Shown here: in pieces, positions 8,336 through 58,204 of the stretch
How positions within the stretch are numbered: the first letter of the stretch is position 1
How the letters are laid out: each line of letters opens with the position of its first letter
Virus record (IMG/VR): IMGVR_UViG_3300033068_001747
From: a virus
Taxonomy: Duplodnaviria; Caudoviricetes
Length of the DNA stretch: 64,000 nucleotides
Strand: one strand, 5' to 3'
Position numbers and translations under genes: made by a program
The notes under the pieces: generated by a model
The model's input: only the letters and a program-made list of their open reading frames with translations
What the model was told of the DNA's origin: nothing
The model's database searches: none

Positions 8336-9045
8336 TACTTCGTAGTTGCTCTTCTAAATAAACTTAACATTAAGTTATATGTTATTTTAAATTCTAAGTT
8401 TAAAGAGTCCCAATCCCACTTACAATCTTTTCTTTGATAAGCAGGTAATGCTTGATATGTTAGTTTACTCCAAATAAAATTAGCCGCAGTAAAGTCAGTT
8501 ATTCTACCATATCTTGCGATTTGTGCAGCAAACATAGGTATTCTGATTGAATGATAAAATGATTTAATCGCAGTACGATATTCATCTTCAATCAATAATT
8601 TTTTCTTACATTTTACCCAAGAGTTAGAACTAACGTGTGAGGTTGCATGTCTTAACTTAGCTAAATTTATTTTGAAATCAAACTTTTTATCTTCTTTTAA
8701 CTTAGCCCAATCTGGTGCAAAAATACACTCAAGATTATTCATACGATGCCATTCTAAATCTTTCTTAAATCTATCTGGAGTATAAATGTGAATATTATAT
8801 CGAATAGTACGAGTCTGTAAATTATATGAAAACTCGTCTTGTACGGTCTTCTTTAATTCAATTGCTTCAACCGAATTATTAGCAACCATTATAATATCCC
8901 AATCAGATGCAGCGTCATAAGTACCATATACTTGTGAACCAAAGATATAAACATTGAATACACGACTTGGATGTATCTCAGCAATTTTTATAATATCTTC
9001 TACTTTAGGAACCCATCTAAAGGTTGCGGGTAATAACTTTACCAT
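8335..9045 (-). CDS. Nucleotidyltransferase (Pol beta superfamily)
   Basis: IFGSQVYGTYDAASDWDI = GS-x10-DxD signature. Confidence 0.8.
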   Translation of the reverse strand: MVKLLPATFRWVPKVEDIIKIAEIHPSRVFNVYIFGSQVYGTYDAASDWDIIMVANNSVEAIELKKTVQDEFSYNLQTRTIRYNIHIYTPDRFKKDLEWHRMNNLECIFAPDWAKLKEDKKFDFKINLAKLRHATSHVSSNSWVKCKKKLLIEDEYRTAIKSFYHSIRIPMFAAQIARYGRITDFTAANFIWSKLTYQALPAYQRKDCKWDWDSLNLEFKITYNLMLSLFRRATTK

Positions 9046-9050
9046 ATTTT

Positions 9051-9584
9051 TTATTTTAATAATTTATTTAATTTTTCTTCTCTTATTTGTGATACTGTCA
9101 TAAAGTAATCTTTAACATCTAACCAAAATACTTGTATAATAACAGTCCCGAAGTCTTCAATATCATTTAACTTTAATTTAATTATCCAATCATCATTTAA
9201 CTCTTCTATACCAATTACATCAAACTCAGATCCTTTATCAATATTTTGAACAAATTTTTGATGTATGTAATTTTTACTATTTACAACTTTATTAAAATCA
9301 TACTTGAAATCTTTCTGTGCTATAATAATTTCACCTATAATTGGTAGTGTATATAAGCTTTTATCAAATTTCCATTGACCACCCAAAATTTTTGTCTTTA
9401 CAAAAACTACCCACATAAAAATTAAAAATATTCCACCAATACCAAAAAATATCGTTGAGGTAAATTGTATCATAACGGCAGATAGTCCTACTAGTAAAAG
9501 AACTAATAGAACTCTATTATCTTTAGATAACCACCTATCAAATAAATATATTTTGTTTTTTAACATGCTAGATATAAAGTACAT
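9051..9584 (-). CDS. Membrane protein with C-terminal tag
   Basis: Two hydrophobic helices; ends QIREEKLNKLLK. Confidence 0.55.
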   Translation of the reverse strand: MYFISSMLKNKIYLFDRWLSKDNRVLLVLLLVGLSAVMIQFTSTIFFGIGGIFLIFMWVVFVKTKILGGQWKFDKSLYTLPIIGEIIIAQKDFKYDFNKVVNSKNYIHQKFVQNIDKGSEFDVIGIEELNDDWIIKLKLNDIEDFGTVIIQVFWLDVKDYFMTVSQIREEKLNKLLK

Positions 9585-9937
9585 TCGTTACTATTTAAAA
9601 CCTTATTTATTTGTTCTTCTCTCCTATAAGCTCTCATTTTATCAATAATCATTTGATAATATGAAAGTAATTCACTTCTTAAATCTTCACTTCTAAATCT
9701 ACTACGTTTAATATAACCTAATTCATCAATTATATCTTGATAGGTCATAATAGGTTTAGTAGGATTATCAGTAAGTAAAACTATACTACGACTGTTTGGG
9801 TCTGAATATATTGTAGTTAAATCTTCACATAATATATCATTCACCACTTTCGACTGTCGTAAACGTGGTCTATCATAAGGGGGTACTATCTCTTCTAATA
9901 ACTTAAAGGCGGAGCCATGTCGATGTATAATTTCCAT
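9560..9937 (-). CDS. Hypothetical protein with C-terminal tag
   Basis: RREEQINKVLN near the C-terminus; TATCTTTG promoter upstream on the minus strand. Confidence 0.55.
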   Translation of the reverse strand: MEIIHRHGSAFKLLEEIVPPYDRPRLRQSKVVNDILCEDLTTIYSDPNSRSIVLLTDNPTKPIMTYQDIIDELGYIKRSRFRSEDLRSELLSYYQMIIDKMRAYRREEQINKVLNSNECTLYLAC

Positions 9938-10041
9938 TTAACAAAGATAGTGTATTTTTTTTTATTTATTTAATTTTTTGTTTCAATTATTTTTTGTACT
10001 TTTGTAAAACAAATAAGAAATCTACTATATATAGTAGTAAC

Positions 10042-10555: not shown

Positions 10556-11734
10556 ATGAAAATAGATATAAATAAAATAAAAACAACACCATCAGAATTA
10601 GGATTCAACTTCTGTGTATTCGGAAAACCATCTGATGAAATTATAAATTGGTGCAATCACTGGAATTTAAAAATGGAAGATTCTGGTAAATACACAAATA
10701 TTATCTTAAATGATGATACTAAAATCTCTGAAATATTTAATCAACCTAATAAATATGATTATATAGATGGTTTTAGTCCAAACTTAAATAAGCATTTACA
10801 CGTTGGACATTTCTCTAACCTTGTACTAGCTAATGCTTTTCAAAAATTAGGACTAGGAAGTAAGTTTATTGCAATTTTTGGAGATACATTAGAAGGTTCA
10901 GTTCAAAAAGATGATGCTTTAAAATCATATTTTGAATATTGTAAAAACTTTAACTATAATGTAGATGAAATATTCTTTGCATCAGAAATGAAATTAAAAG
11001 ATGAAAGTTTATTAAAAGAAGGTGAAGGTACATACGAAGGTTCTAAAATATTCGATTTAGCAGACGAAAAATTAGTTGGTATAAAAAGTACTGGTTCTAC
11101 ATCTTACTTTTATCAAGATGTTGCTTTAGCAAGTAAATTAAACTCTTCTACATTGTATTTGACCGGTGCAGAACAAGATAATCATTTTAAATCGTTGAAG
11201 AAATTATTCCCAAAAACAAATCACATTGGTTTAGGTTTAGTTCAATTAGACGGTAAAAAAATGTCAAGTAGTGAAGGTAATGTTATTTACATGACCGAAT
11301 TTATAAATAGTTTACTACCATTATTCAATAATGATATAAAGTTAGTTTATAATATTATTGCTGGTCAAATACTTAAATCCAACACAACTTCAAGTAAGTC
11401 AATAGATACAAAGTTGATTGGTAATCCAAAATTATCTTTAGGTTTATATTTAAGTTATACTATGGCACATATTAAAAGCTGTGGTGTTGAAGTACAAGAA
11501 AAACAAGATTTTTATTCTAAACAACTAGAGTTTGCAGAGTTAAAAGCTAAATCTAATTTATCACCAAATATATTATTTGATGCTCTAATAAATCACTGTA
11601 AAAATATAAACAAGTTGTACGAAGTTTTGTACATAAAAGATAATGAAACAAATAAAAAGTTATTCTCTGACTTATTGACAGATTTACATATAGGTATGAA
11701 GAAAATTGGATTATTTCCAGTTGATAAAGTATAA
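10556..11734 (+). CDS. argS: Minimal arginyl-tRNA synthetase-like protein containing no Arg
   Basis: FSPNLNKHLHVGH (HIGH), KSTGSTSYFYQDVA, GAEQDNHF, KKMSSSEG (KMSKS), YLSYTMAH. Confidence 0.8.
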   Translation: MKIDINKIKTTPSELGFNFCVFGKPSDEIINWCNHWNLKMEDSGKYTNIILNDDTKISEIFNQPNKYDYIDGFSPNLNKHLHVGHFSNLVLANAFQKLGLGSKFIAIFGDTLEGSVQKDDALKSYFEYCKNFNYNVDEIFFASEMKLKDESLLKEGEGTYEGSKIFDLADEKLVGIKSTGSTSYFYQDVALASKLNSSTLYLTGAEQDNHFKSLKKLFPKTNHIGLGLVQLDGKKMSSSEGNVIYMTEFINSLLPLFNNDIKLVYNIIAGQILKSNTTSSKSIDTKLIGNPKLSLGLYLSYTMAHIKSCGVEVQEKQDFYSKQLEFAELKAKSNLSPNILFDALINHCKNINKLYEVLYIKDNETNKKLFSDLLTDLHIGMKKIGLFPVDKV

Positions 11735-13838: not shown

Positions 13839-14224
13839 TAAAAACACAAACAGGGTATATAAGTTATGACCAGGTATCATTTATTGTACCGGCATATAGT
13901 AAACTCTTAAATATACTATATGCAAATTCACAATATACAATTTTATATGAATATGACCCAGAACAAACTGAAACTAAAACATTTGTAATACAACCTTGGG
14001 TAGATCATGATGGTACAAGTATGTACTATCCACCATATGGATTTAATTATTGGGGAACTATAACATATACAGAACCAATACTATCTTCACACACACAAGG
14101 TATGGGTTCAAATACAAATATGACATTAAATTTGATCAATAATACAAATTTTTTTCATATCTTTGTACAAGAAATTTTATCTACTGCAGAAATGAGAGAT
14201 AAAAAAATTGAAGAAATAATTTAA
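13835..14224 (+). CDS. Hypothetical protein with C-terminal tag
   Basis: Ends EMRDKKIEEII. Confidence 0.55.
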   Translation: MIKTQTGYISYDQVSFIVPAYSKLLNILYANSQYTILYEYDPEQTETKTFVIQPWVDHDGTSMYYPPYGFNYWGTITYTEPILSSHTQGMGSNTNMTLNLINNTNFFHIFVQEILSTAEMRDKKIEEII

Positions 14225-14255
14225 AGGTAGATATGTTACTTTTATATATAGTAGT

Positions 14256-15032
14256 ATGAAAGAAAATATCAAAATTGATATAAACAATAAATACTTTTGT
14301 TATATATTAGGATTACTATGGGGAGATGGATACCTCTACAAAGGAAGAGTTGGTATATCAATGATTTCAGAAGATTTAGACCCTCTAGTAAGCATTTTTA
14401 GTCATATAGGAGATTGGAAAATATGTAAGTCTTCAAGAAAAGACTATAAAGAACAAACAACTCTTAGAGTCTCAGATAAGAAACTGTATACTTTTTTAAC
14501 TAGTATGGATTTTGATATAAAGTCAAAAACATCACCAAATAAAATTTTAAATATAATAGAAGAACATAACTTTAAATATTTTTTAAGGGGATTTTTTGAT
14601 GCAGATGGTTGTTTCTATATAAACAAGAATACTAGACAATGTATAATTACATCAAACTATTCACAAAACTGGGACTTTTTATCTAATTTTTACTCTAGTA
14701 AAGGATGGAAACACTCAATAGGTAAACAAATTAGTAAAACAGGAAGCAGATCATTTATTAGAATAACAAATAAAGATATATTAAAATTTGGAAACTTTAT
14801 ATATAATGGTGACCCCTTTGGAATAGAAAGAAAATATAACAAGTTTATAGATATAGAAAAATCATATATTAAAAAAAATAGAGTAGGACATAATAAAAAA
14901 TCTATTTATATAGAGGATATTCAATATGATAGTATATCAGAGGCAGTCTTACTAACAGGTATAAATAGAGAAGTTATAAGATATAGATTAAAATCAAAAA
15001 AATTTAATTATAGATACAATGAAGAAATTTAG
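14256..15032 (+). mobile_element. Free-standing LAGLIDADG homing endonuclease
   Basis: ILGLLWGDG and FLRGFFDADG motifs; C-terminal NUMOD1-like YDSISEA. Confidence 0.85.
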
Positions 15033-15483
15033 TTTAATAAATGAATCAAAATCAAAATTTAGCATAGGTATTGACATACACGGTGTTATCGATGCACTTC
15101 CAGAATTCTTTGCCTTTTTAGCAGACTCTGTTATAAAAAATGGTGGCGATGTACACATCATAACTGGAGGCGAGTGGAACGATAAACTTGAAAAACAATT
15201 AGGTAATATAAACTATACACATAAATTTTCAGTTTATGATCACTTATTAAAAACAGCAGAAACTTTAGGTGAAATCGAATTTCCTGATGGAACAATTCAA
15301 AAGAAATTTGATGATGTTCTATGGGATTCTACAAAAGCCGAATACTGTAAAGAAAATAATATCAATCTTCATATTGATGATACATTATGTTATAATGACT
15401 ACTTTACTACACCATTCGCTAGATTTTGGTCACATAATGGTAAACAAAAAGCATCACACAAAGATATTAGACATTTAGACTAA
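15019..15483 (+). CDS. HAD-like phosphatase
   Basis: IGIDIHGVID, IITG, K..YC....LHIDD. Confidence 0.65.
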   Translation: MKKFSLINESKSKFSIGIDIHGVIDALPEFFAFLADSVIKNGGDVHIITGGEWNDKLEKQLGNINYTHKFSVYDHLLKTAETLGEIEFPDGTIQKKFDDVLWDSTKAEYCKENNINLHIDDTLCYNDYFTTPFARFWSHNGKQKASHKDIRHLD

Positions 15484-15512
15484 ACATTTTTTAATTCTTC
15501 TATATAATTCAC

Positions 15513-16481
15513 ATGGAAGAATTAAAAATTATAAGTCTATTCTCTGGATATGGTACCCAAGAATTAGCATTAAAGTATAGTGGTATTAAATACCGTAATG
15601 TTGCAAACTGTGACATTCTTAAATCAGCAAACGAAGCTTATGACTCTTTACACACTACCGAAGAAGGTAATTTAGGAGACATTTCAAAAGTTGATGAAAA
15701 AACATTTCCTCATTGTGATTTTTTAACATACTCTTTCCCTTGTCAAGATATATCTATATCTGGTGTACAACGTGGTATTGAAAGAGGAACTCGAAGTGGT
15801 TTGTTATACGAAGTTGAAAGAATCGTAGAACATAATAAGCCAAAATTCCTTTTAATGGAAAATGTTAAAAATCTAGTTTCAAAAAATCATATCAAAAAAT
15901 TTAATGATTATATTGACAAACTTAACTCTTTAGGTTATGGTTCTGCTTGGATGGTACTTAACGGTGCTGACTTTGGATGTCCTCAAAACCGTGAGAGAGT
16001 TTTTATGTTTTCAGTATTAGGTGAAACCTCTTTAGAAGTTTCTAATAAAATGATGGGAGTTCACAATCATAAAAAATCTAGAGTTTCAATGAGACCATAT
16101 GTTGAAGAAACGGTAGATAATAGTTTATTTATCACACCACCTTATGAGATAAATACTCCTAAAGTAAGTTCTGTTTGTAAAATGGTGGCTAGAAGAAGTG
16201 ACTTAAAATACGACCAAGCTAGAAGAATTTACTCTATTGACGGTTGTTCACCTTGTTTAACTACATCAGGCTCACCACAAATTATGTTAGATGATAAAAG
16301 AATTAGAACTCTAACAGCTAGAGAAGGTTATCGTTTTATGGGAGTTAAAGATAATGATATAGATAAACTACTAACTACAAGTTTAACAACTAAACAACAT
16401 GTAGCTTTAGCAGGAAACTCAATATGTGTTCCAGTAATGCAAGCAATTTTTGAACAATTTTTCACAGATTATATGAATTAA
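15513..16481 (+). CDS. dcm: DNA (cytosine-5) methyltransferase
   Basis: LFSGYG, FPCQ, MENV, QNRER, AGNS motifs. Confidence 0.93.
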   Translation: MEELKIISLFSGYGTQELALKYSGIKYRNVANCDILKSANEAYDSLHTTEEGNLGDISKVDEKTFPHCDFLTYSFPCQDISISGVQRGIERGTRSGLLYEVERIVEHNKPKFLLMENVKNLVSKNHIKKFNDYIDKLNSLGYGSAWMVLNGADFGCPQNRERVFMFSVLGETSLEVSNKMMGVHNHKKSRVSMRPYVEETVDNSLFITPPYEINTPKVSSVCKMVARRSDLKYDQARRIYSIDGCSPCLTTSGSPQIMLDDKRIRTLTAREGYRFMGVKDNDIDKLLTTSLTTKQHVALAGNSICVPVMQAIFEQFFTDYMN

Positions 16482-16506
16482 AAAAACCCACTTTCGAGTG
16501 GGTTCT

Positions 16507-16716
16507 TCATTTTCCGATATTTAATACTAGTTTCCATTCACCAGCAGTTGTTTGACCTATAACTTTATAACTTCTAATAGATTCCATTCTGACAAATCTA
16601 AGTATTTTACTCAATTTATCATGAAACATTTCTTGTGACTCTCCATTTTCGAACCACTCAAGTTTGTATTCTATAAATACATCTTTATTTTCATTAAATT
16701 TTTTCAAGTACCTCAT
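16507..16716 (-). CDS. Small protein with MRYLKKFNE leader
   Basis: Leader motif; TATATA upstream. Confidence 0.55.
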   Translation of the reverse strand: MRYLKKFNENKDVFIEYKLEWFENGESQEMFHDKLSKILRFVRMESIRSYKVIGQTTAGEWKLVLNIGK

Positions 16717-23875: not shown

Positions 23876-24751
23876 ATGCAAAACACTTTAATGTACAATT
23901 CTCTAGTTCAAAAACTAAGAGAATTTTTTTTGGAAAAAAACTTCGTAGAAGTTCCAACACAACCTAGATTATCAATCTTAGCAGCTTGTGAAAACCCTCA
24001 CTCTGTTGCTACCTATGAATGGAATGGCTTAGTATGGCCTTTACCACAAACAGGACAAATGCACTTAGAAGTAGAACTTCTTAAAAATCCACAATGGGAC
24101 GGTGTATTCTGTATAACAACTTCTTACCGTGCTGAGAAAAATCCAATCCCTGGAAGACACGAAACAATTTTCCCAATGTTTGAATTTGAATCAAAAGGTG
24201 GAATCGAAGAATTGAAAAAACTTGAAGCTGAACTTTTAGTTTACTTAGGATTCGGAGAACCAGTTGAAAGAAAATATGACGATTTATGTGAAGAGTACGG
24301 TGGTGTACAAATCTTAGAAGACGAACATGAATCAAGAATGTGGAAAGAATTAGGACATTGTGTTTCTTTACAACAATTTCCACTAAGAACAAATCCTTTC
24401 TGGAATATGCTACCAGTTGGTGACGGTACATTCAACAAAATTGACATTATCTTATTCGGTCAAGAAACAATAGGATCTGCAGAAAGAAGTTGTGATGTTG
24501 CTAGAATGAGAGAACTTTTCCATACAATTGAAAATGGTGCTTATGCTGCTAAATTATTTGAATTATTTGGTCAAGAAAGAGTAGAGAAGGAATTAGAAGA
24601 CTTCTTTAGTTTAGATTTCATACCAAGATATGGTGCAGGAATCGGTCTAACAAGATTAGCAAGAGCAATGGAACTTCTAATCGAAGATAATCAAAAAGTA
24701 GCAGAAGAGTTAAATCTTCTAAATAAAAAAGTTACAGAAGTATATTCATAA
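23876..24751 (+). CDS. Class IIb aaRS catalytic domain only (AsnRS/AspRS paralog, possibly an asparagine synthetase); no OB-fold anticodon-binding domain
   Basis: Motif 1 REFF..NFVEVPT, motif 2 SYRAE...GRH...FPMFEFE, motif 3 GAGIGLTRL. Confidence 0.8.
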   Translation: MQNTLMYNSLVQKLREFFLEKNFVEVPTQPRLSILAACENPHSVATYEWNGLVWPLPQTGQMHLEVELLKNPQWDGVFCITTSYRAEKNPIPGRHETIFPMFEFESKGGIEELKKLEAELLVYLGFGEPVERKYDDLCEEYGGVQILEDEHESRMWKELGHCVSLQQFPLRTNPFWNMLPVGDGTFNKIDIILFGQETIGSAERSCDVARMRELFHTIENGAYAAKLFELFGQERVEKELEDFFSLDFIPRYGAGIGLTRLARAMELLIEDNQKVAEELNLLNKKVTEVYS

Positions 24752-28226: not shown

Positions 28227-29156
28227 ATGGAAAAAGTTAAATGTATTATTATAGGATCAGGACCTGCAGGGTATACCGCCGCAATTTATGCAGCAAGAGC
28301 AAATATGAAACCTGTTTTATATCAAGGGATGCAACCTGGTGGACAACTAACAACAACTAATGAAGTTGAAAATTATCCTGGATTTCCAAATGGAATAACA
28401 GGACCAGAAATGATGCAACAATTTGAGGAACAAGCTAAACGATTTGGAACAGATATAAGAGATGGTTTTGTAACTAAAGTAGATTTTAGTGGAGACATTA
28501 AAAAAGTCTTTGTAAACGAAAAAGAAATACATTGTGATACTGTTATCATATCTACAGGAGCCACTGCTAAGTACTTAGGATTAGAATCAGAACAAAAATA
28601 CCTTACTTTAGGTGGAGGTGTTAGTGCTTGTGCTATTTGTGATGGATTCTTTTACAAAGGTTTAGATGTAGTTGTAGTTGGAGCAGGGGATTCTGCTTGT
28701 GAAGAAGCTCACTACTTATCAAAAATCTGTAATAAAGTAACTATGTTAGTAAGAAGTGATTTTAGAGCTTCTAAGATTATGGTTGATAGAGTTAGAAATA
28801 CTGAGAATATAGAAATACTTTTAAATACTGAAACTATAGAAGTTTGTGGTGACGGTCAAGTAGTAAATAAAATCATTGTTAAGAATAGTAAAACTGAAGA
28901 AGTATCTGAAATACCTGCAGCTGGATTCTTTTTAGCGATTGGTCATAAACCAAACACAGATATATTTAAAGATTATTTAAAATTAGATTCTGTTGGATAT
29001 ATTGTTACTGAACCAGGAAGTACAAAAACAAATGTAGCAGGAGTATTTGCGGCAGGTGATGTTGCGGATCATGTTTATAGACAAGCTATTACTGCTGCAG
29101 GAACAGGTTGTATGGCCGCTTTAGATGCAGAAAGATACTTAGCAAGTTTGGAATAG
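28227..29156 (+). CDS. trxB: Thioredoxin reductase
   Basis: IIGSGPAGYTAAIY, CAIC, FAAGDVAD..YRQAITAAG. Confidence 0.97.
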   Translation: MEKVKCIIIGSGPAGYTAAIYAARANMKPVLYQGMQPGGQLTTTNEVENYPGFPNGITGPEMMQQFEEQAKRFGTDIRDGFVTKVDFSGDIKKVFVNEKEIHCDTVIISTGATAKYLGLESEQKYLTLGGGVSACAICDGFFYKGLDVVVVGAGDSACEEAHYLSKICNKVTMLVRSDFRASKIMVDRVRNTENIEILLNTETIEVCGDGQVVNKIIVKNSKTEEVSEIPAAGFFLAIGHKPNTDIFKDYLKLDSVGYIVTEPGSTKTNVAGVFAAGDVADHVYRQAITAAGTGCMAALDAERYLASLE

Positions 29157-31313: not shown

Positions 31314-31376
31314 AGTGTATATATTAAAATTTATTATTATATTTGCAACTAAACTTGAATTAAAAATATAAATAAA

Positions 31377-32633
31377 ATGAATGATAATTATAAATACGTA
31401 ACTGTTATGTTTCCCTACCCTTCTGGTAGTGGATTGCATTGTGGACACTGGTACAATTATGCAATTATAGATAGTTACTGTAGATACTTGAGATATAAAG
31501 GTGAACAAGTTTTTCAACCATTTGGTTATGACTCATTTGGTTTACCTGCAGAAAACTACGCGAAAAAAGTGGGTAGAGACCCACGAGAAGTTACTTACGA
31601 AAATATAGAAAACTTTAGAGGACAGATGAAAAACATGGACACTCAATATGAGGAAATGTTGATTACTTCTGATCCTAACTACATTGAATACACACAATGG
31701 TTGTTTAAACAATTGTATGATAAAGGATTGGCTTATAAAAAAGATGGTGAAGTTGACTTTTGTAATAGTTGTGAAACCGTATTGGCTAGAGAACAAGTAA
31801 AAGATGGTAAATGTGATAGATGTTCAAATGAAGTTGAAAAGAAAACATTGAACCAATGGTATTTTAAAATCACTGATTATAAAGAAAGATTGATTGCAGG
31901 TTTGGACCATATAGATTTCCCTGAATCTACCAAGAAAGCTCAAAGAAATTGGTTGGAAAACCAACATGATTGGTGTGTATCAAGACAAAGAAGTTGGGGT
32001 TGTCCAATTCCAATTGAAGGAGAAACTGATACAATGGACACTTTTGTAGATAGTTCTATTTATACTATAATCTATTGTATTATGAAAGGTATTAAACCTA
32101 AACCAGTTGACTTGTATGTTGGTGGTTCTGAACATGCTTGTATGCACTTGATCTATATTAGATTTATTACTATGTTCTTGCATGACATTGGGTTTATTGA
32201 CTTTGAAGAACCAATTACTAAATTGGTACATCAAGGTATGATTTTGAACCAAGGTGAGAAAATGTCTAAATCTAAAGATAATGTAGTTAGTTTGGATGGT
32301 TATGATTCTGATGAAATTAGATTTTATTTGATGTTTATTGGACATTACTTCGATGGTGGTTCTTGGTCAGATGAAAATATAATTGGTATTAGAAGATTTA
32401 TAAATAGAATGAAAACTTGGTTGGATAAAACAGGTGAGGAAACTATTGATATAGAAGCTTTCAAAAAAACTATATTTGATTTTACAGATGCGTTTAAGTT
32501 TAACAAAGTAGTGAGTTCATTTATGATTTTGTTGAACCAAAATAAAAATAAAGCATTGACTCCAGAATGTAAAGAAGAATTGATTAAATTGATTGAGATC
32601 TATATGCCTGGTATTAGAGGAAAATTAAACTAA
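31377..32633 (+). CDS. leuS: Minimal leucyl-tRNA synthetase lacking the CP1 editing and C-terminal domains
   Basis: MFPYPSG.GLHCGH, GYDSFGLPAEN, DWCVSRQRSWG.PIP, DTMDTF, GGSEHA, KMSKS; 418 aa. Confidence 0.9.
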   Translation: MNDNYKYVTVMFPYPSGSGLHCGHWYNYAIIDSYCRYLRYKGEQVFQPFGYDSFGLPAENYAKKVGRDPREVTYENIENFRGQMKNMDTQYEEMLITSDPNYIEYTQWLFKQLYDKGLAYKKDGEVDFCNSCETVLAREQVKDGKCDRCSNEVEKKTLNQWYFKITDYKERLIAGLDHIDFPESTKKAQRNWLENQHDWCVSRQRSWGCPIPIEGETDTMDTFVDSSIYTIIYCIMKGIKPKPVDLYVGGSEHACMHLIYIRFITMFLHDIGFIDFEEPITKLVHQGMILNQGEKMSKSKDNVVSLDGYDSDEIRFYLMFIGHYFDGGSWSDENIIGIRRFINRMKTWLDKTGEETIDIEAFKKTIFDFTDAFKFNKVVSSFMILLNQNKNKALTPECKEELIKLIEIYMPGIRGKLN

Positions 32634-32673: not shown

Positions 32674-33012
32674 ATGGATAAACATAAAACAAATTTTACT
32701 AAAGATAAAGTAGTAAATAAGAGAATAAACGACTTTTTAGATAAATTTTATATGAGAGACAAAGGTAGATTTTTTTGGAAAGAAAGATGGTTTTCAATAT
32801 GTAGTACACACCAAGAATATACAAAAGAATGCAAAACTTGTAATGTTGGATGTTGGGAGAACGTATGGAGAACCAATATAGAGAAAGTAATATTTATAAT
32901 CTCACCAAAATTATACAAATGGATCTTGAAATTTAAAAAAGTGCAGTTGATAAATATAATTGAAGAAAATGAACCCAAGAAATATTACAGAAGAAATCAA
33001 AGAAAAAATTAA
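32674..33012 (+). CDS. Hypothetical protein
   Basis: ORF with C-x2-H and CxxC. Confidence 0.45.
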   Translation: MDKHKTNFTKDKVVNKRINDFLDKFYMRDKGRFFWKERWFSICSTHQEYTKECKTCNVGCWENVWRTNIEKVIFIISPKLYKWILKFKKVQLINIIEENEPKKYYRRNQRKN

Positions 33013-33178
33013 AAACGCACATTACTATAAATTTGGTGCAGTATCACCAGATGGTTTTGTTTTGATCCCAAAAGAAACTTTTGAAAGATTAAAAGACTTT
33101 GATGTTTGGAAAGAATGGAAGAATAACCCAGAATCCTTAGAACAATTAGCAATTGAGGATTTAAGAAAACAAGAATAG
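32960..33178 (+). CDS. Hypothetical protein
   Basis: ORF ending in TAG immediately before the next ATG. Confidence 0.5.
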   Translation: MKKMNPRNITEEIKEKIKNAHYYKFGAVSPDGFVLIPKETFERLKDFDVWKEWKNNPESLEQLAIEDLRKQE

Positions 33179-33742
33179 ATGAAAAAATTATTACTACTAT
33201 TATTAATTGGACTAATGTCATTTACAACAACTAATAAAAGAATACTATTTGTCGGAGACAGTTTAAGTTGTTTTAATGGTGGTTGGCAAACACAAGTTGC
33301 ACAAGGACTAGGTAAGGATTATAAAAATGTTGCAAAGTTTGGTAAAACAACAGATTGGATGTTAAATAATCTAAAAGCTCACCTAGTAAATAATAATAGT
33401 AAATATGATACCATCTTTATTTATGGTGGTATCAATGATGCTTACTCAGGAAATAGTATAAATACTATTGAAAATCTACAGAAGATGGTTGACTTATGTA
33501 ATAAATACAATATAAAACCAATTATAATTGTGGGTTATAACCCATTAAAAGTTGCAAAAGGTAGAACAAAACAACGAGATAAATATATAAGTTTACAAAG
33601 AAAAATGTTAGATCTTAAAGGTTGTAAGATTATACCAATTGATAATTCTATAGATAGACGAGATACAGAAGATGGTATACATTTAAAAAGATCAGGACAT
33701 AAAAAATTTAGTAAATTTGTATTACAAAATTTGGAGATATAA
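33179..33742 (+). CDS. Secreted SGNH/GDSL hydrolase
   Basis: Signal peptide, FVGDSLS, GGIND, DGIHL. Confidence 0.85.
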   Translation: MKKLLLLLLIGLMSFTTTNKRILFVGDSLSCFNGGWQTQVAQGLGKDYKNVAKFGKTTDWMLNNLKAHLVNNNSKYDTIFIYGGINDAYSGNSINTIENLQKMVDLCNKYNIKPIIIVGYNPLKVAKGRTKQRDKYISLQRKMLDLKGCKIIPIDNSIDRRDTEDGIHLKRSGHKKFSKFVLQNLEI

Positions 33743-39262: not shown

Positions 39263-40105
39263 ATGGTAACAAGAGTAGCACCCTCTCCAACTGGTTTTTT
39301 CCACTTAGGAACTTTAAGAACTGCACTACTTGCTTGGCTTCAAGCAAGAGCTAATAACGGTACATTCATTTTAAGAATTGATGATACCGATCAAGAAAGA
39401 AATAAACCAGAGTGGATTGATTATATCTACGAGCAAATGTCTGAGTTTGGTTTAGATCACGACATTACTTTCAGACAATCTGAGAGATTAGACCGTTACA
39501 GAGAAGTAGCTGAGAAAATCGGTACTAAAACTGAGAATGGTTACGAGTTAGATATGGGAGAGTACTCAATGGTTATTCTTAGAAATAACGGGTTCCCTAC
39601 ATATAACTTCTGTTCAATTTTAGATGATTATGACTATGATGTAACTAATATCATTAGAGGTGTTGACCACATTGCAAATGAGGCAAAACAACGTATTATC
39701 TGGGATAAGATTTGTGAAGTAGAAGGAGATAAAACATTTCCAGTAATTACACATGCTGGATTACTTTTCGACGGTAATGCTAAATTATCTAAGAGAAAAG
39801 GTAATGGTACAACAGAAGATTACAAAGATTACAGTAGAGCTGCTATCTTAAACTGGTTGGTTAAATTTGGTTGGTCACACCCAGATCCATTGTTTGATAA
39901 GAAACACCCTACTTTAAGTATAGACGAAATGATTGCTCTTTTCAACGAAGGAAACATTTCAGATAGAAACTGTAAAATCGATAAAGCTAAATTAGAGTTC
40001 CTAAATAAAAAATGGAAAGCAATTGAGAAAAGAGGTGGTGCAGGTTCAACAAAAGAAATCGTAGTTGAGTCAAAACTTTTAAAGTTTGACGAGTTTCAAA
40101 AATAA
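39263..40105 (+). CDS. gltX: Minimal glutamyl-tRNA synthetase-like protein without anticodon-binding domain
   Basis: TRVAPSPTGFFHLG, LRIDDTD, GFPTYNF, IIRGVDH, KLSKR; 280 aa. Confidence 0.85.
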   Translation: MVTRVAPSPTGFFHLGTLRTALLAWLQARANNGTFILRIDDTDQERNKPEWIDYIYEQMSEFGLDHDITFRQSERLDRYREVAEKIGTKTENGYELDMGEYSMVILRNNGFPTYNFCSILDDYDYDVTNIIRGVDHIANEAKQRIIWDKICEVEGDKTFPVITHAGLLFDGNAKLSKRKGNGTTEDYKDYSRAAILNWLVKFGWSHPDPLFDKKHPTLSIDEMIALFNEGNISDRNCKIDKAKLEFLNKKWKAIEKRGGAGSTKEIVVESKLLKFDEFQK

Positions 40106-57478: not shown

Positions 57479-57523
57479 ATGAAAAATAGATTTAATTTTA
57501 ATGTCCATTGTAGCCATAGATAA
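57479..57523 (+). promoter_or_regulatory. Candidate His leader peptide MKNRFNFNVHCSHR* with overlapping hairpin
   Basis: uORF right after a TACATTTG promoter; two CAT codons; hairpin tgtagcc...ggctata (57509-57536). Confidence 0.55.
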
Positions 57524-57541
57524 TATCTGGGCTATAAAACT

Positions 57542-58204
57542 ATGTACAAAAAATTAAAACTAAAAACAATGGAAATTAAATTAAAAAATACCTATAAAGG
57601 AACAAGAATAATATTTGCTGAAACTGCAAAAAGAAAAAGAACTATTTTGAACCAAATGATTGAAATACTTGAATCATATGGTTACCAAGAAATGATGATT
57701 CCTGTCATTCAATTATCTGATACATTTGCTAAAAAAGTTGGTGAAGAAAACAATAACATGATGTACACTTTTACTGATAGAGGTAATAGAGACATCTGTT
57801 TAGCACCAGAATATACTGCTGTTGTGCAACAACTTGCAAATGAAACATTCAAAATGACTAAAGATGTAAAACTCTTTTACATTGGAGAATGTTTTAGAGG
57901 CGAAAGACCTCAGGCATCAAGATGGAGACAATTTACACAATTTGGTGTTGAAGTAATCAATCCAAGAAAAGATTACACAGATGAATTGTTAGAAATAGCA
58001 AAGAAACTTATTGAAATAGTCACAGATAACTATGAAGTTAATTTAGATGCAACTAGAGGACTTGACTACTATACTGGTGGTAAAGGATTTGAGATTTCTT
58101 GTCCACAATTAGGTGCAGCCAAACAAATTTGCGGAGGTGGCTCTTATCAAGGAGGAGTGGGACTGGCTATAGGTGTGGATAGATTACTGAATTGTAACCA
58201 ATAA
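57542..58204 (+). CDS. hisS: Minimal histidyl-tRNA synthetase-like catalytic domain containing no His
   Basis: KGTR, LAPEYTA, FRGERPQASRWRQFTQFGVE, RGLDYYTG, GGGSY, G.AIGVDRL. Confidence 0.85.
   Translation: MYKKLKLKTMEIKLKNTYKGTRIIFAETAKRKRTILNQMIEILESYGYQEMMIPVIQLSDTFAKKVGEENNNMMYTFTDRGNRDICLAPEYTAVVQQLANETFKMTKDVKLFYIGECFRGERPQASRWRQFTQFGVEVINPRKDYTDELLEIAKKLIEIVTDNYEVNLDATRGLDYYTGGKGFEISCPQLGAAKQICGGGSYQGGVGLAIGVDRLLNCNQ

Follow-up and report, generated by a model that had tools for sequence, protein, structure and literature searches.

For its own synthesis a tRNA synthetase ordinarily depends on the product it makes, a kind of self-reference that has long been recognised in the translation apparatus. 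The theory of selective charging predicts low-demand codons in response genes and sensitive codons in attenuator leaders, and pheM, which precedes pheST in E. coli, demonstrates that attenuation can control a synthetase. Under this theory, reportedly put forward by Elf and colleagues in 2003, little-used isoacceptors stay charged under starvation; selective isoacceptor charging under starvation is also said to have been treated by Dittmar and colleagues in 2005 and by Subramaniam and colleagues in 2013. A related phenomenon, cognate bias, is the depletion of amino-acid-supplying enzymes in the amino acid that they supply (Alves and Savageau 2005; Fasani and Savageau 2014, PMC4209129). The tRNA and aminoacyl-tRNA synthetase (aaRS) repertoires of huge phages were described by Al-Shayeb et al. 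2020 (PMC7162821), with no mention of cognate content or aaRS codon choice; the same study reported that the GlyRS gene of a host is targeted by a CRISPR spacer of a phage. Cognate bias in biosynthetic enzymes, selective charging and leader attenuation of pheST are already known, while the full-text literature searched contained no description of phage synthetases free of their cognate residue or of a LeuRS written with a single Leu codon.

The window analysed here is a 64,000-nt stretch of DNA from a virus of the Caudoviricetes, and the genome containing it is a 132,473-bp fragment with a GC content of 28.6%. It includes a gene for a miniature leucyl-tRNA synthetase (mini-LeuRS), with the following features of codon use:

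31377-32633, plus strand: mini-LeuRS coding sequence, 418 aa, with 24 TTG, 2 TTA and 0 CTN codons (basis: codon count, TIGR00396 leuS_bact and AF2 model)
31542-31544, plus strand: TTA codon of L56, the first of two Leu codons other than TTG, which is TTG in the closest relatives
32625-32627, plus strand: TTA codon of L417, the penultimate residue and the other non-TTG Leu codon

The preliminary description of this locus had reported these codon counts and a total of 26 Leu among 418 residues, and a recount gave the same values. Leu codons of the genome comprised TTA 2127, TTG 337, CTT 555, CTC 23, CTA 454 and CTG 33, such that TTG represented about 9% of the total (337/3529, mini-LeuRS counted in) and the binomial probability of at least 24 TTG among 26 Leu codons was 1.8e-23. 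Genes adjoining mini-LeuRS, including that of a TrxB-like flavoprotein (28227-29156), contained 0-1 TTG apiece, consistent with the earlier remark that TTG is rare in neighbours such as trxB. An unbiased scan of all genes and all codon families (1638 gene x amino-acid tests) identified Leu in mini-LeuRS as the strongest codon outlier of the genome (p 9e-21), with a lead of 12 orders of magnitude over the runner-up (6e-9). Within the gene, the Leu family alone deviated (chi-square p 6e-43; remaining families p>0.02). A shift of other families towards G-ending codons, raised beforehand as a possible sign of a donor, was looked for and none was found: GAA, AAA and CAA were still dominant, and the ratios of GAA/GAG (27/4), AAA/AAG (32/3) and CAA/CAG (13/1) were as in the genome. 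Even rarer codons than TTG, namely CTC and CTG, were unused. Leu made up 6.2% of the residues, as compared with 8.9% in the phage proteome (P 0.03) and with 7.7 +/- 0.9% across 130 full-length LeuRSs; the reduction in Leu, to which attention had also been drawn, is real but mild.

In-frame TTA was observed twice in mini-LeuRS vs 22.7 expected. Out-of-frame TTA, CTA and CTT were at or above expectation in both other frames, and the antisense frames were closed by 7-39 stops. Since only in-frame codons are depleted and the antisense strand is closed, decoding is the target of selection, as opposed to an RNA motif or a gene overlapping this one. Genes for the capsid (gp23-like) and sheath favoured ATC and had no TTG preference. 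Exact matches among metatranscriptome contigs were located only 3' of LeuRS (32677-33380), with one small contig touching the 3' end of the gene.

The encoded protein was examined for the domains of a LeuRS. The best NCBIfam family was TIGR00396 (leuS_bact), with 369 bits vs 145 for metG; as half of the model has no counterpart in the protein, this score does not reach the 548 bits set as the cut-off for full-length members. The features recognised were as follows:

31437-31448, plus strand: HIGH-type class I signature HCGH (H21-H24), with H21, G23 and H24 invariant in 21 homologs
31761-31823, plus strand: four-Cys zinc knuckle (C129, C132, C146 and C149), a retained ZN1-like insertion, with the Cys residues nearly invariant in homologs
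31941-31991, plus strand: junction at the missing CP1 domain, QRNWLENQHDWCVSRQR (residues 189-205), as located by aligning the protein with 3ZIU and with the LeuRSs of T. thermophilus and E. coli
32259-32273, plus strand: KMSKS catalytic loop (K295-S299), with K295, M296 and K298 invariant in 21 homologs

Residues 6-195 matched residues 35-226 of T. thermophilus LeuRS, and the alignment continued over Q189-R205 into DWCVSRQR. The clean absence of the CP1 editing domain, noted earlier from the letters of the sequence, was evident in the alignments to 3ZIU and to the T. thermophilus and E. coli enzymes, in that QRNWLENQ is directly joined to HDWCVSRQR through a linker shorter than that of the naturally CP1-less LeuRS of Mycoplasma mobile. 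The latter (3ZIU) was also the best solved relative (E 7e-78). An AF2 model derived from 21 homologs (pLDDT 87, pTM 0.87) had a TM score of 0.90 to 3ZIU and of 0.83-0.88 to the LeuRSs of T. thermophilus, E. coli and N. gonorrhoeae. Approximately 118 residues follow KMSKS, and the 3ZIU alignment stops at residue 470 of its 637. Mini-LeuRS has no leucine-specific insertion, and little is left of its anticodon-binding and C-terminal tRNA-binding region, full domains of both kinds being absent. A 112-aa ORF downstream was considered as a missing tRNA-binding partner and found no support, being kept in the window's clade only. Mini-LeuRS is a catalytic core derived from LeuRS and is probably an active enzyme.

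In order to establish whether homologs have the same codon use, 30 IMG/VR loci and the 635-kb phage LR745206 were compared (same length, 59-95% identity). Habitat labels of the records, obtained from word shares, were wastewater, freshwater and bioreactor. Close relatives are located on contigs of 635-649 kb, and by this comparison mini-LeuRS belongs to a huge phage of roughly 640 kb. Huge phages LR745206 and LR756501 both contain LeuRS homologs, and the genomes hold as many as 15 aaRS genes and some 60 tRNAs each. The LeuRS family comprised >6,000 protein clusters.

The majority of the homologs had 74-100% TTG among their Leu codons vs 5-26% in their flanks, and four (L001, L012, L014 and L017) used TTG exclusively. 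A lack of bias in homologs, which the preliminary description had named as evidence against its proposal, was looked for and did not apply to most of them. In the tree, TTG-only clades were mixed among unbiased ones (L021, L013, L016, L028, L018 and L025), and the bias is not obligatory. At approximately 70% amino acid identity, synonymous sites outside the Leu family were random; between the window and L017, 116 positions had the same codon where 115.4 were expected. Despite this saturation, Leu residues shared among homologs were encoded by TTG, as were Leu positions unique to a lineage. That TTG is kept in homologs at 60-70% identity, in which other synonymous sites are saturated, shows that the bias is maintained by selection.

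Two lineages had a different codon preference. The LeuRS of L023 was the sole CTG-only lineage, with CTG at 19 of 20 Leu vs a background of 5%, and L029 was a CTT and CTG lineage with no TTA. Because TTG to CTG is one synonymous transition, the L023 lineage switched approximately 15 conserved Leu codons in parallel. Homologs with less Leu tended to have a stronger monopoly of NNG codons (rho -0.58, uncorrected for phylogeny). The Leu content was 4.3-4.8% in strict TTG-only homologs and 0% in L118. The 508-aa LeuRS of the 735-kb phage LR756501 (35% identical) contained no Leu at all. The cellular LeuRS of S. aureus had 65 Leu, mainly TTA, the same as its neighbour genes.

The relatives contained 53-67 tRNAs according to ARAGORN (59-74 Rfam matches per record), including multiple copies of phage tRNA-Leu(UAA) and tRNA-Leu(UAG). 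In these relatives LeuRS was positioned directly downstream of tRNA-Leu clusters, with 15 nt (L027) and 300 nt (L014) between the end of tRNA-Leu(CAA) and the LeuRS start. L023 has seven tRNAs at 8460-9192, long and short ones with Leu anticodons. Among four whole genomes (G001-G004), tRNA-Leu(CAG) was present only in G003, which encodes the CTG-only LeuRS of L023. No tRNA-Leu was detected in G000 and the contigs of three relatives, which represent the window's clade as fragments 26-60% complete; tRNA-Met and tRNA-Cys alone were seen in these fragments. UUG can also be decoded by tRNA-Leu(UAA). Therefore, the description of tRNA-Leu(CAA) as a private decoder of TTG is a simplification.

To place the Leu codon use of mini-LeuRS among other phage synthetases, aaRS genes were sought in five phage genomes, specificities were assigned by NCBIfam, and 34 aaRS genes were scored. 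The observed/expected ratio was 0.26 for the cognate residue and 1.09 for non-cognate residues. In the 34 x 20 matrix of aaRS genes and residues, 14 of the 16 zero cells were cognate, a result matched by none of 1e5 permutations. G002 encoded eight synthetases devoid of their cognate residue: IleRS (742 aa), ValRS (509), ThrRS (346), ProRS (368), AspRS (425), TyrRS (359), TrpRS (240) and HisRS (211). One cognate residue each was present in its LysRS, AsnRS, GlnRS and GlyRS-like protein, and its SerRS retained 12 Ser, all AGY. Leftover cognate codons also shunned the major codon, with ACG/ACC in ThrRS, CGN in ArgRS-like proteins and GAG in GluRS-like proteins. The window itself contained three further synthetase-like genes:

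10556-11734, plus strand: ArgRS-like protein, 392 aa, 0 Arg (weak argS match; 54% identical to the ArgRS-like protein of G004)
39263-40105, plus strand: mini-GluRS, 280 aa, Glu undepleted (GAG 13/21 vs 21% genome-wide)
57542-58204, plus strand: mini-HisRS, 220 aa, 0 His

The GluRS genes, in which Glu is not avoided, were an exception to the cognate rule. A 291-aa class-II-like protein (23876-24751) was left uncounted, its similarity to AsnRS/AspRS being marginal and its Asn and Asp undepleted. The top codon outliers of G004 other than LeuRS, whose size had made them candidates for IleRS and ArgRS, were actually the capsid and tail sheath proteins, an AAA ATPase and an OmpA-domain protein. The case of leucine fits a wider rule, whereby huge phages write their tRNA-charging enzymes largely without each enzyme's own amino acid. 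Judged by composition, the LeuRS of the window is the leucine version of this general design at an intermediate stage, with Leu slightly reduced and the remainder funnelled into one codon.

Several relatives also contained a putative leader attenuator upstream of their synthetase genes. The corresponding region of the window was as follows:

31314-31376, no strand assigned: divergent intergenic region 5' of mini-LeuRS, 63 nt, with no leader peptide and no terminator, unlike several relatives

A leader-peptide attenuator was sought in these 63 nt upstream of LeuRS and none was detected. Short leader ORFs ending in a run of Leu codons preceded LeuRS in L012 (MKQNAKSLLLLLL), L017, which corresponds to G002 (MITTMNTNLLLLADS), L001 (MINNNVNILLLPLT) and L030 (MKQIFVNTLLLLSLF), at a distance of approximately 90 nt in L012, L017 and L030 and approximately 220 nt in L001, where a small ORF lies between. 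After each of the four leaders there was a conserved segment able to pair with the 5' arm of a terminator hairpin, and the terminators, each a hairpin and a U-run, were strong, at -15 to -19 kcal/mol and with z scores as low as -6.4. The leader and terminator of L012 lie at 9860-10010 of that locus. In L027, a leader (MKTTLSLSLSLSLSLS...) and terminator were followed by a block of three tRNA-Leu and three tRNA-Ser and then by LeuRS. Cognate-run leaders were not confined to LeuRS, with IIII before IleRS, VVVV before ValRS and HFHFHF before HisRS in G002, and QQQQQ before GlnRS in G001. A candidate leader in L023, MIKILLL, was rejected, since it is part of a GIY-YIG-like ORF that has been inserted there.

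In the four LeuRS leaders together, Leu was encoded 19 times, by TTA (9), CTC (5), CTA (3), CTT (2) and TTG (0), the absence of TTG being not significant by itself (P about 0.07). The LeuRS ORFs of L012, L017 and L001 were wholly TTG, and the ORF of L030 was frameshifted with mixed Leu codons. As annotated, this apparent complementarity of leader and ORF codons is what selective-charging theory predicts.

Taken together, the comparative evidence suggests, with a probability of roughly 0.7, that the mini-LeuRS gene is written for translation at times when charged tRNA-Leu is scarce. Production of LeuRS would in this way be made minimally dependent on its own product, Leu-tRNA. Leu is somewhat reduced in the protein, and nearly all that is left is encoded by the rare TTG, for which tRNA-Leu(CAA) serves as a separate C34 decoder. 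Once leucylation no longer keeps pace with demand, isoacceptors in heavy use (UAA for TTA; UAG and GAG/AAG for CTN) would be discharged first, and the little-used tRNA-Leu(CAA) would keep its charge. Ribosomes would then stall on ordinary TTA-rich mRNAs yet complete LeuRS, constituting a passive feedback that requires no regulator. In relatives, slow decoding of common Leu codons may also turn on LeuRS transcription. Candidate sources of the shortage are phage demand, host defence and a phage attack on host translation. Three elements of this explanation are inferred: a limiting supply of Leu-tRNA in infected cells, the continued charging of tRNA-Leu(CAA), and activity of the enzyme. Removal of self-dependence leaves a synthetase dependent on the other 19 charged tRNAs.

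Among alternative explanations, the one that survives best is gating as in the bldA system, although it is unlikely. LeuRS would be translated only once the phage tRNA array supplies the rare tRNA-Leu(CAA) or tRNA-Leu(CAG), which would time LeuRS synthesis or tie it to the expression of phage tRNAs rather than protect it against a shortage. The rarity of TTG in these genomes, the position of tRNA-Leu(CAA) directly upstream of a TTG-only LeuRS in L027 and L014, and the co-occurrence of the CTG-only LeuRS with the sole phage tRNA-Leu(CAG) are all in keeping with gating, but other synthetases drop their cognate residue wholly, which signifies independence rather than dependence, and a Leu-free LeuRS exists. 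Furthermore, no tRNA-Leu is found near LeuRS or elsewhere in the four contigs of the window's clade, which are fragments, and the still rarer CTC and CTG are not employed by the window's gene.

A rather improbable explanation is the destruction of isoacceptors, in which a nuclease of the phage or of a host defence would cut U34-containing tRNA-Leu, the readers of TTA and CTA, and the LeuRS gene would avoid the affected codons. A-ending Leu codons are indeed avoided in all biased homologs, including L029 with its CTT and CTG, the residual cognate codons of other aaRS genes likewise avoid A-ending major codons, and the multiple phage copies of tRNA-Leu(UAA) and tRNA-Leu(UAG) in relatives have the appearance of replacements. 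Against this, TTA accounts for 45-61% of Leu in the remaining phage genes, and its share of 61% in the rest of the window's genome means that TTA decoding must work overall. Cleaved tRNAs are not repairable by a synthetase, isoacceptor-specific cleavage leaves the whole-residue avoidance in other aaRS genes unexplained, and no nuclease was identified. The preliminary description had proposed that the gene avoids Leu isoacceptors destroyed or left uncharged during infection and that its codon points to the tRNAs targeted. The first part, avoidance of failing Leu decoders, is strongly supported by the comparative evidence, and tRNA-Leu left uncharged during infection is indirectly supported. The second part is not supported: unequal charging of isoacceptors explains the pattern at least as well, and the codon alone therefore does not identify targeted tRNAs.

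Shielding of fidelity is very improbable. According to this explanation, an enzyme without editing would mischarge tRNA, and its own gene would use the codon of a tRNA accurately charged by the host enzyme. CP1 is absent from mini-LeuRS, and the CP1-less LeuRS of M. mobile mistranslates, but the codons that would be error-prone are found in every other gene of the phage, the full-length phage IleRS, with most domains kept, also avoids its cognate residue, and there is no sign of isoacceptor selectivity in the enzyme. Gating, isoacceptor cleavage and fidelity shielding all fit the sister enzymes less well than does coding that withstands a shortage. Lastly, a donor or horizontal transfer signature or GC3 shift, mutational bias, codon optimisation, avoidance of an RNA motif (e.g. 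UUA) and an overlapping antisense gene have a negligible probability and nothing but the raw bias in their favour, being ruled out by the deviation of Leu alone with other families fitting the genome, by the persistence of the bias beyond saturated divergence, by the unbiased capsid and sheath genes, by the normal out-of-frame TTA and CTA, and by the 7-39 antisense stops.

With coding for a shortage of charged tRNA-Leu as the preferred explanation, the phage genes would represent natural solutions to the self-reference of translation, in which the cognate residue is removed or Leu is routed via one rare codon. Such genes could serve as sequence-only predictors of when a phage expects translation to fail, of the true amino acid of an odd synthetase and of the usable isoacceptor. 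Because their sensor and response codons are disjoint, they would provide a strong natural test of selective-charging theory, and work on cell-free systems and minimal cells could draw on them for synthetases that are already miniature or free of the cognate residue. The design also argues that phage synthetases would be emergency replacements induced by shortage and not mere boosters. A more tentative extension, doubtful at present, is that huge phages carry a self-starting kit composed of a cognate-codon sensor and a cognate-free synthetase ORF, with the Leu and Ser ORFs using one usable isoacceptor. If so, a phage could restore its charging capacity from almost nothing once the synthetases or tRNAs of the host had failed or been shut off, the codon of LeuRS (TTG, or CTG in one lineage) would name the tRNA that seeds the restart, and this seed tRNA and mini-LeuRS, which are often adjacent, would form a minimal autocatalytic pair.

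Comparison with known systems reveals both common and distinct features. The M. mobile LeuRS (3ZIU) is missing its editing domain at the same junction as mini-LeuRS; it is a cellular enzyme of 637 aa vs 418 aa for the phage protein, in which the leucine-specific insertion is additionally absent, as is the greater part of the region that binds the anticodon and, at the C-terminus, the tRNA. In the Streptomyces bldA system, as here, one rare Leu codon is concentrated in particular genes and tied to one tRNA. The genes of that system depend on a regulated tRNA, whereas the cognate-free sister enzymes and the shortage sensors of the phages suggest insulation.

The putative attenuators resemble leuL, hisL and pheM-pheST of E. 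coli in that a small ORF containing consecutive cognate codons comes first, followed by alternative hairpins and, ahead of the gene, an intrinsic terminator. They differ in being phage-encoded and paired with cognate-free ORFs, in L027 with a tRNA block as well, and they occur in the relatives L012, L017, L001, L030 and L027 only and not in the window. The use of TTG in phage LeuRS ORFs and of TTA/CTN in their leaders is the split predicted under selective charging. What is a statistical tendency in the biosynthetic operons of E. coli is a monopoly of 92-100% in a single phage gene, that of LeuRS, and the codon employed (TTG or CTG) changes with the tRNA set of the phage. As in cognate bias, the enzymes would still be makeable when their own amino acid is scarce, which is also what is proposed for the phage synthetases. 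The difference is that the enzymes depleted here are phage tRNA synthetases, in which the cognate residue is often missing altogether (0 Ile in 742 aa) and in which Leu passes through a single-codon funnel.

At L027, a LeuRS homologue locus, a block made up of tRNA-Leu(UAG), three tRNA-Ser, tRNA-Leu(UAA), tRNA-Leu(CAA), and LeuRS lies downstream of the leader MKTTLSLSLSLSLSLSGWTNRAM and a terminator. The Leu codons of this leader (TTG, TTA, and CTA) correspond to the three Leu anticodons of the downstream block. Runs of the cognate residue were also observed in short ORFs located 90-270 nt 5' of cognate-free synthetase genes, i.e. genes without codons for their own amino acid, in the related phage genomes G002 and G001.

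Leader and short ORFs upstream of synthetase genes
L027, 9223-9345: leader MKTTLSLSLSLSLSLSGWTNRAM with terminator
G002: IIII before IleRS (51775)
G002: VVVV before ValRS (396695)
G002: HFHFHF before HisRS (415217)
G001: QQQQQ before GlnRS (272259)
Window, 57480-57541: short ORF MKNRFNFNVHCSHR, ending 18 nt 5' of the His-free mini-HisRS

The short ORFs of G002 and G001 are candidate leader-peptide attenuators. The ORF MKNRFNFNVHCSHR is a weak candidate for a leader of the mini-HisRS, since it contains just two His.

Many phage tRNAs with Leu anticodons were 74-77 nt in length and did not contain the long variable arm (L023 8460-9192; G002 320079-321339; L001 3399-5175), and these adjoin normal 81-92-nt tRNA-Leu of identical anticodons. 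The sole tRNA(CAA) seen in G002 and in L001 was of the short form, and discriminator A73 was present in all seven tRNAs with Leu anticodons at L023 8460-9192. The stretch from the tRNA-Leu array of L023 to its CTG-only LeuRS is interrupted by a GIY-YIG-like ORF (9242-10000), a probable homing endonuclease identified by eye from its translation. In L118 (LR756501.1, a 735-kb phage), five tRNA-Leu genes are located immediately upstream of a LeuRS-like gene of 508 aa with zero Leu codons (14986-16512).

Anticodon-CTA tRNAs, i.e. amber suppressors (labelled 'Pyl' by ARAGORN), were found in three copies in the related genome G004 and one copy at L017 (3516-3588), the LeuRS locus of G002. TAG may be recoded in both phages, in which case their gene calls, made with table 11, would be fragmented. 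Both the composition and the codon usage of the contig-end ORF L043 (G001 407-1381) are extreme (87 Leu; all ATC/TAC/AAC/CAC), and this ORF probably represents a repeat or assembly artefact.

Residue content was also considered for a class II-like protein and two GluRS genes.

Window, 23876-24751: 291-aa protein with marginal class II similarity (AsnRS, AspRS, AsnA or EpmA-like)
G002, 13984-15510: GluRS gene (L092)
G004, 388782-390341: GluRS gene (L086)

Neither Asn nor Asp was depleted in the class II-like protein, whose position beside LeuRS is kept across the window's clade. In both GluRS genes Glu was not depleted relative to expectation, while Gln was strongly depleted, at 0.1-0.2 of expectation, suggesting that these enzymes may really serve tRNA-Gln, similar to a GluRS2-type or non-discriminating enzyme.
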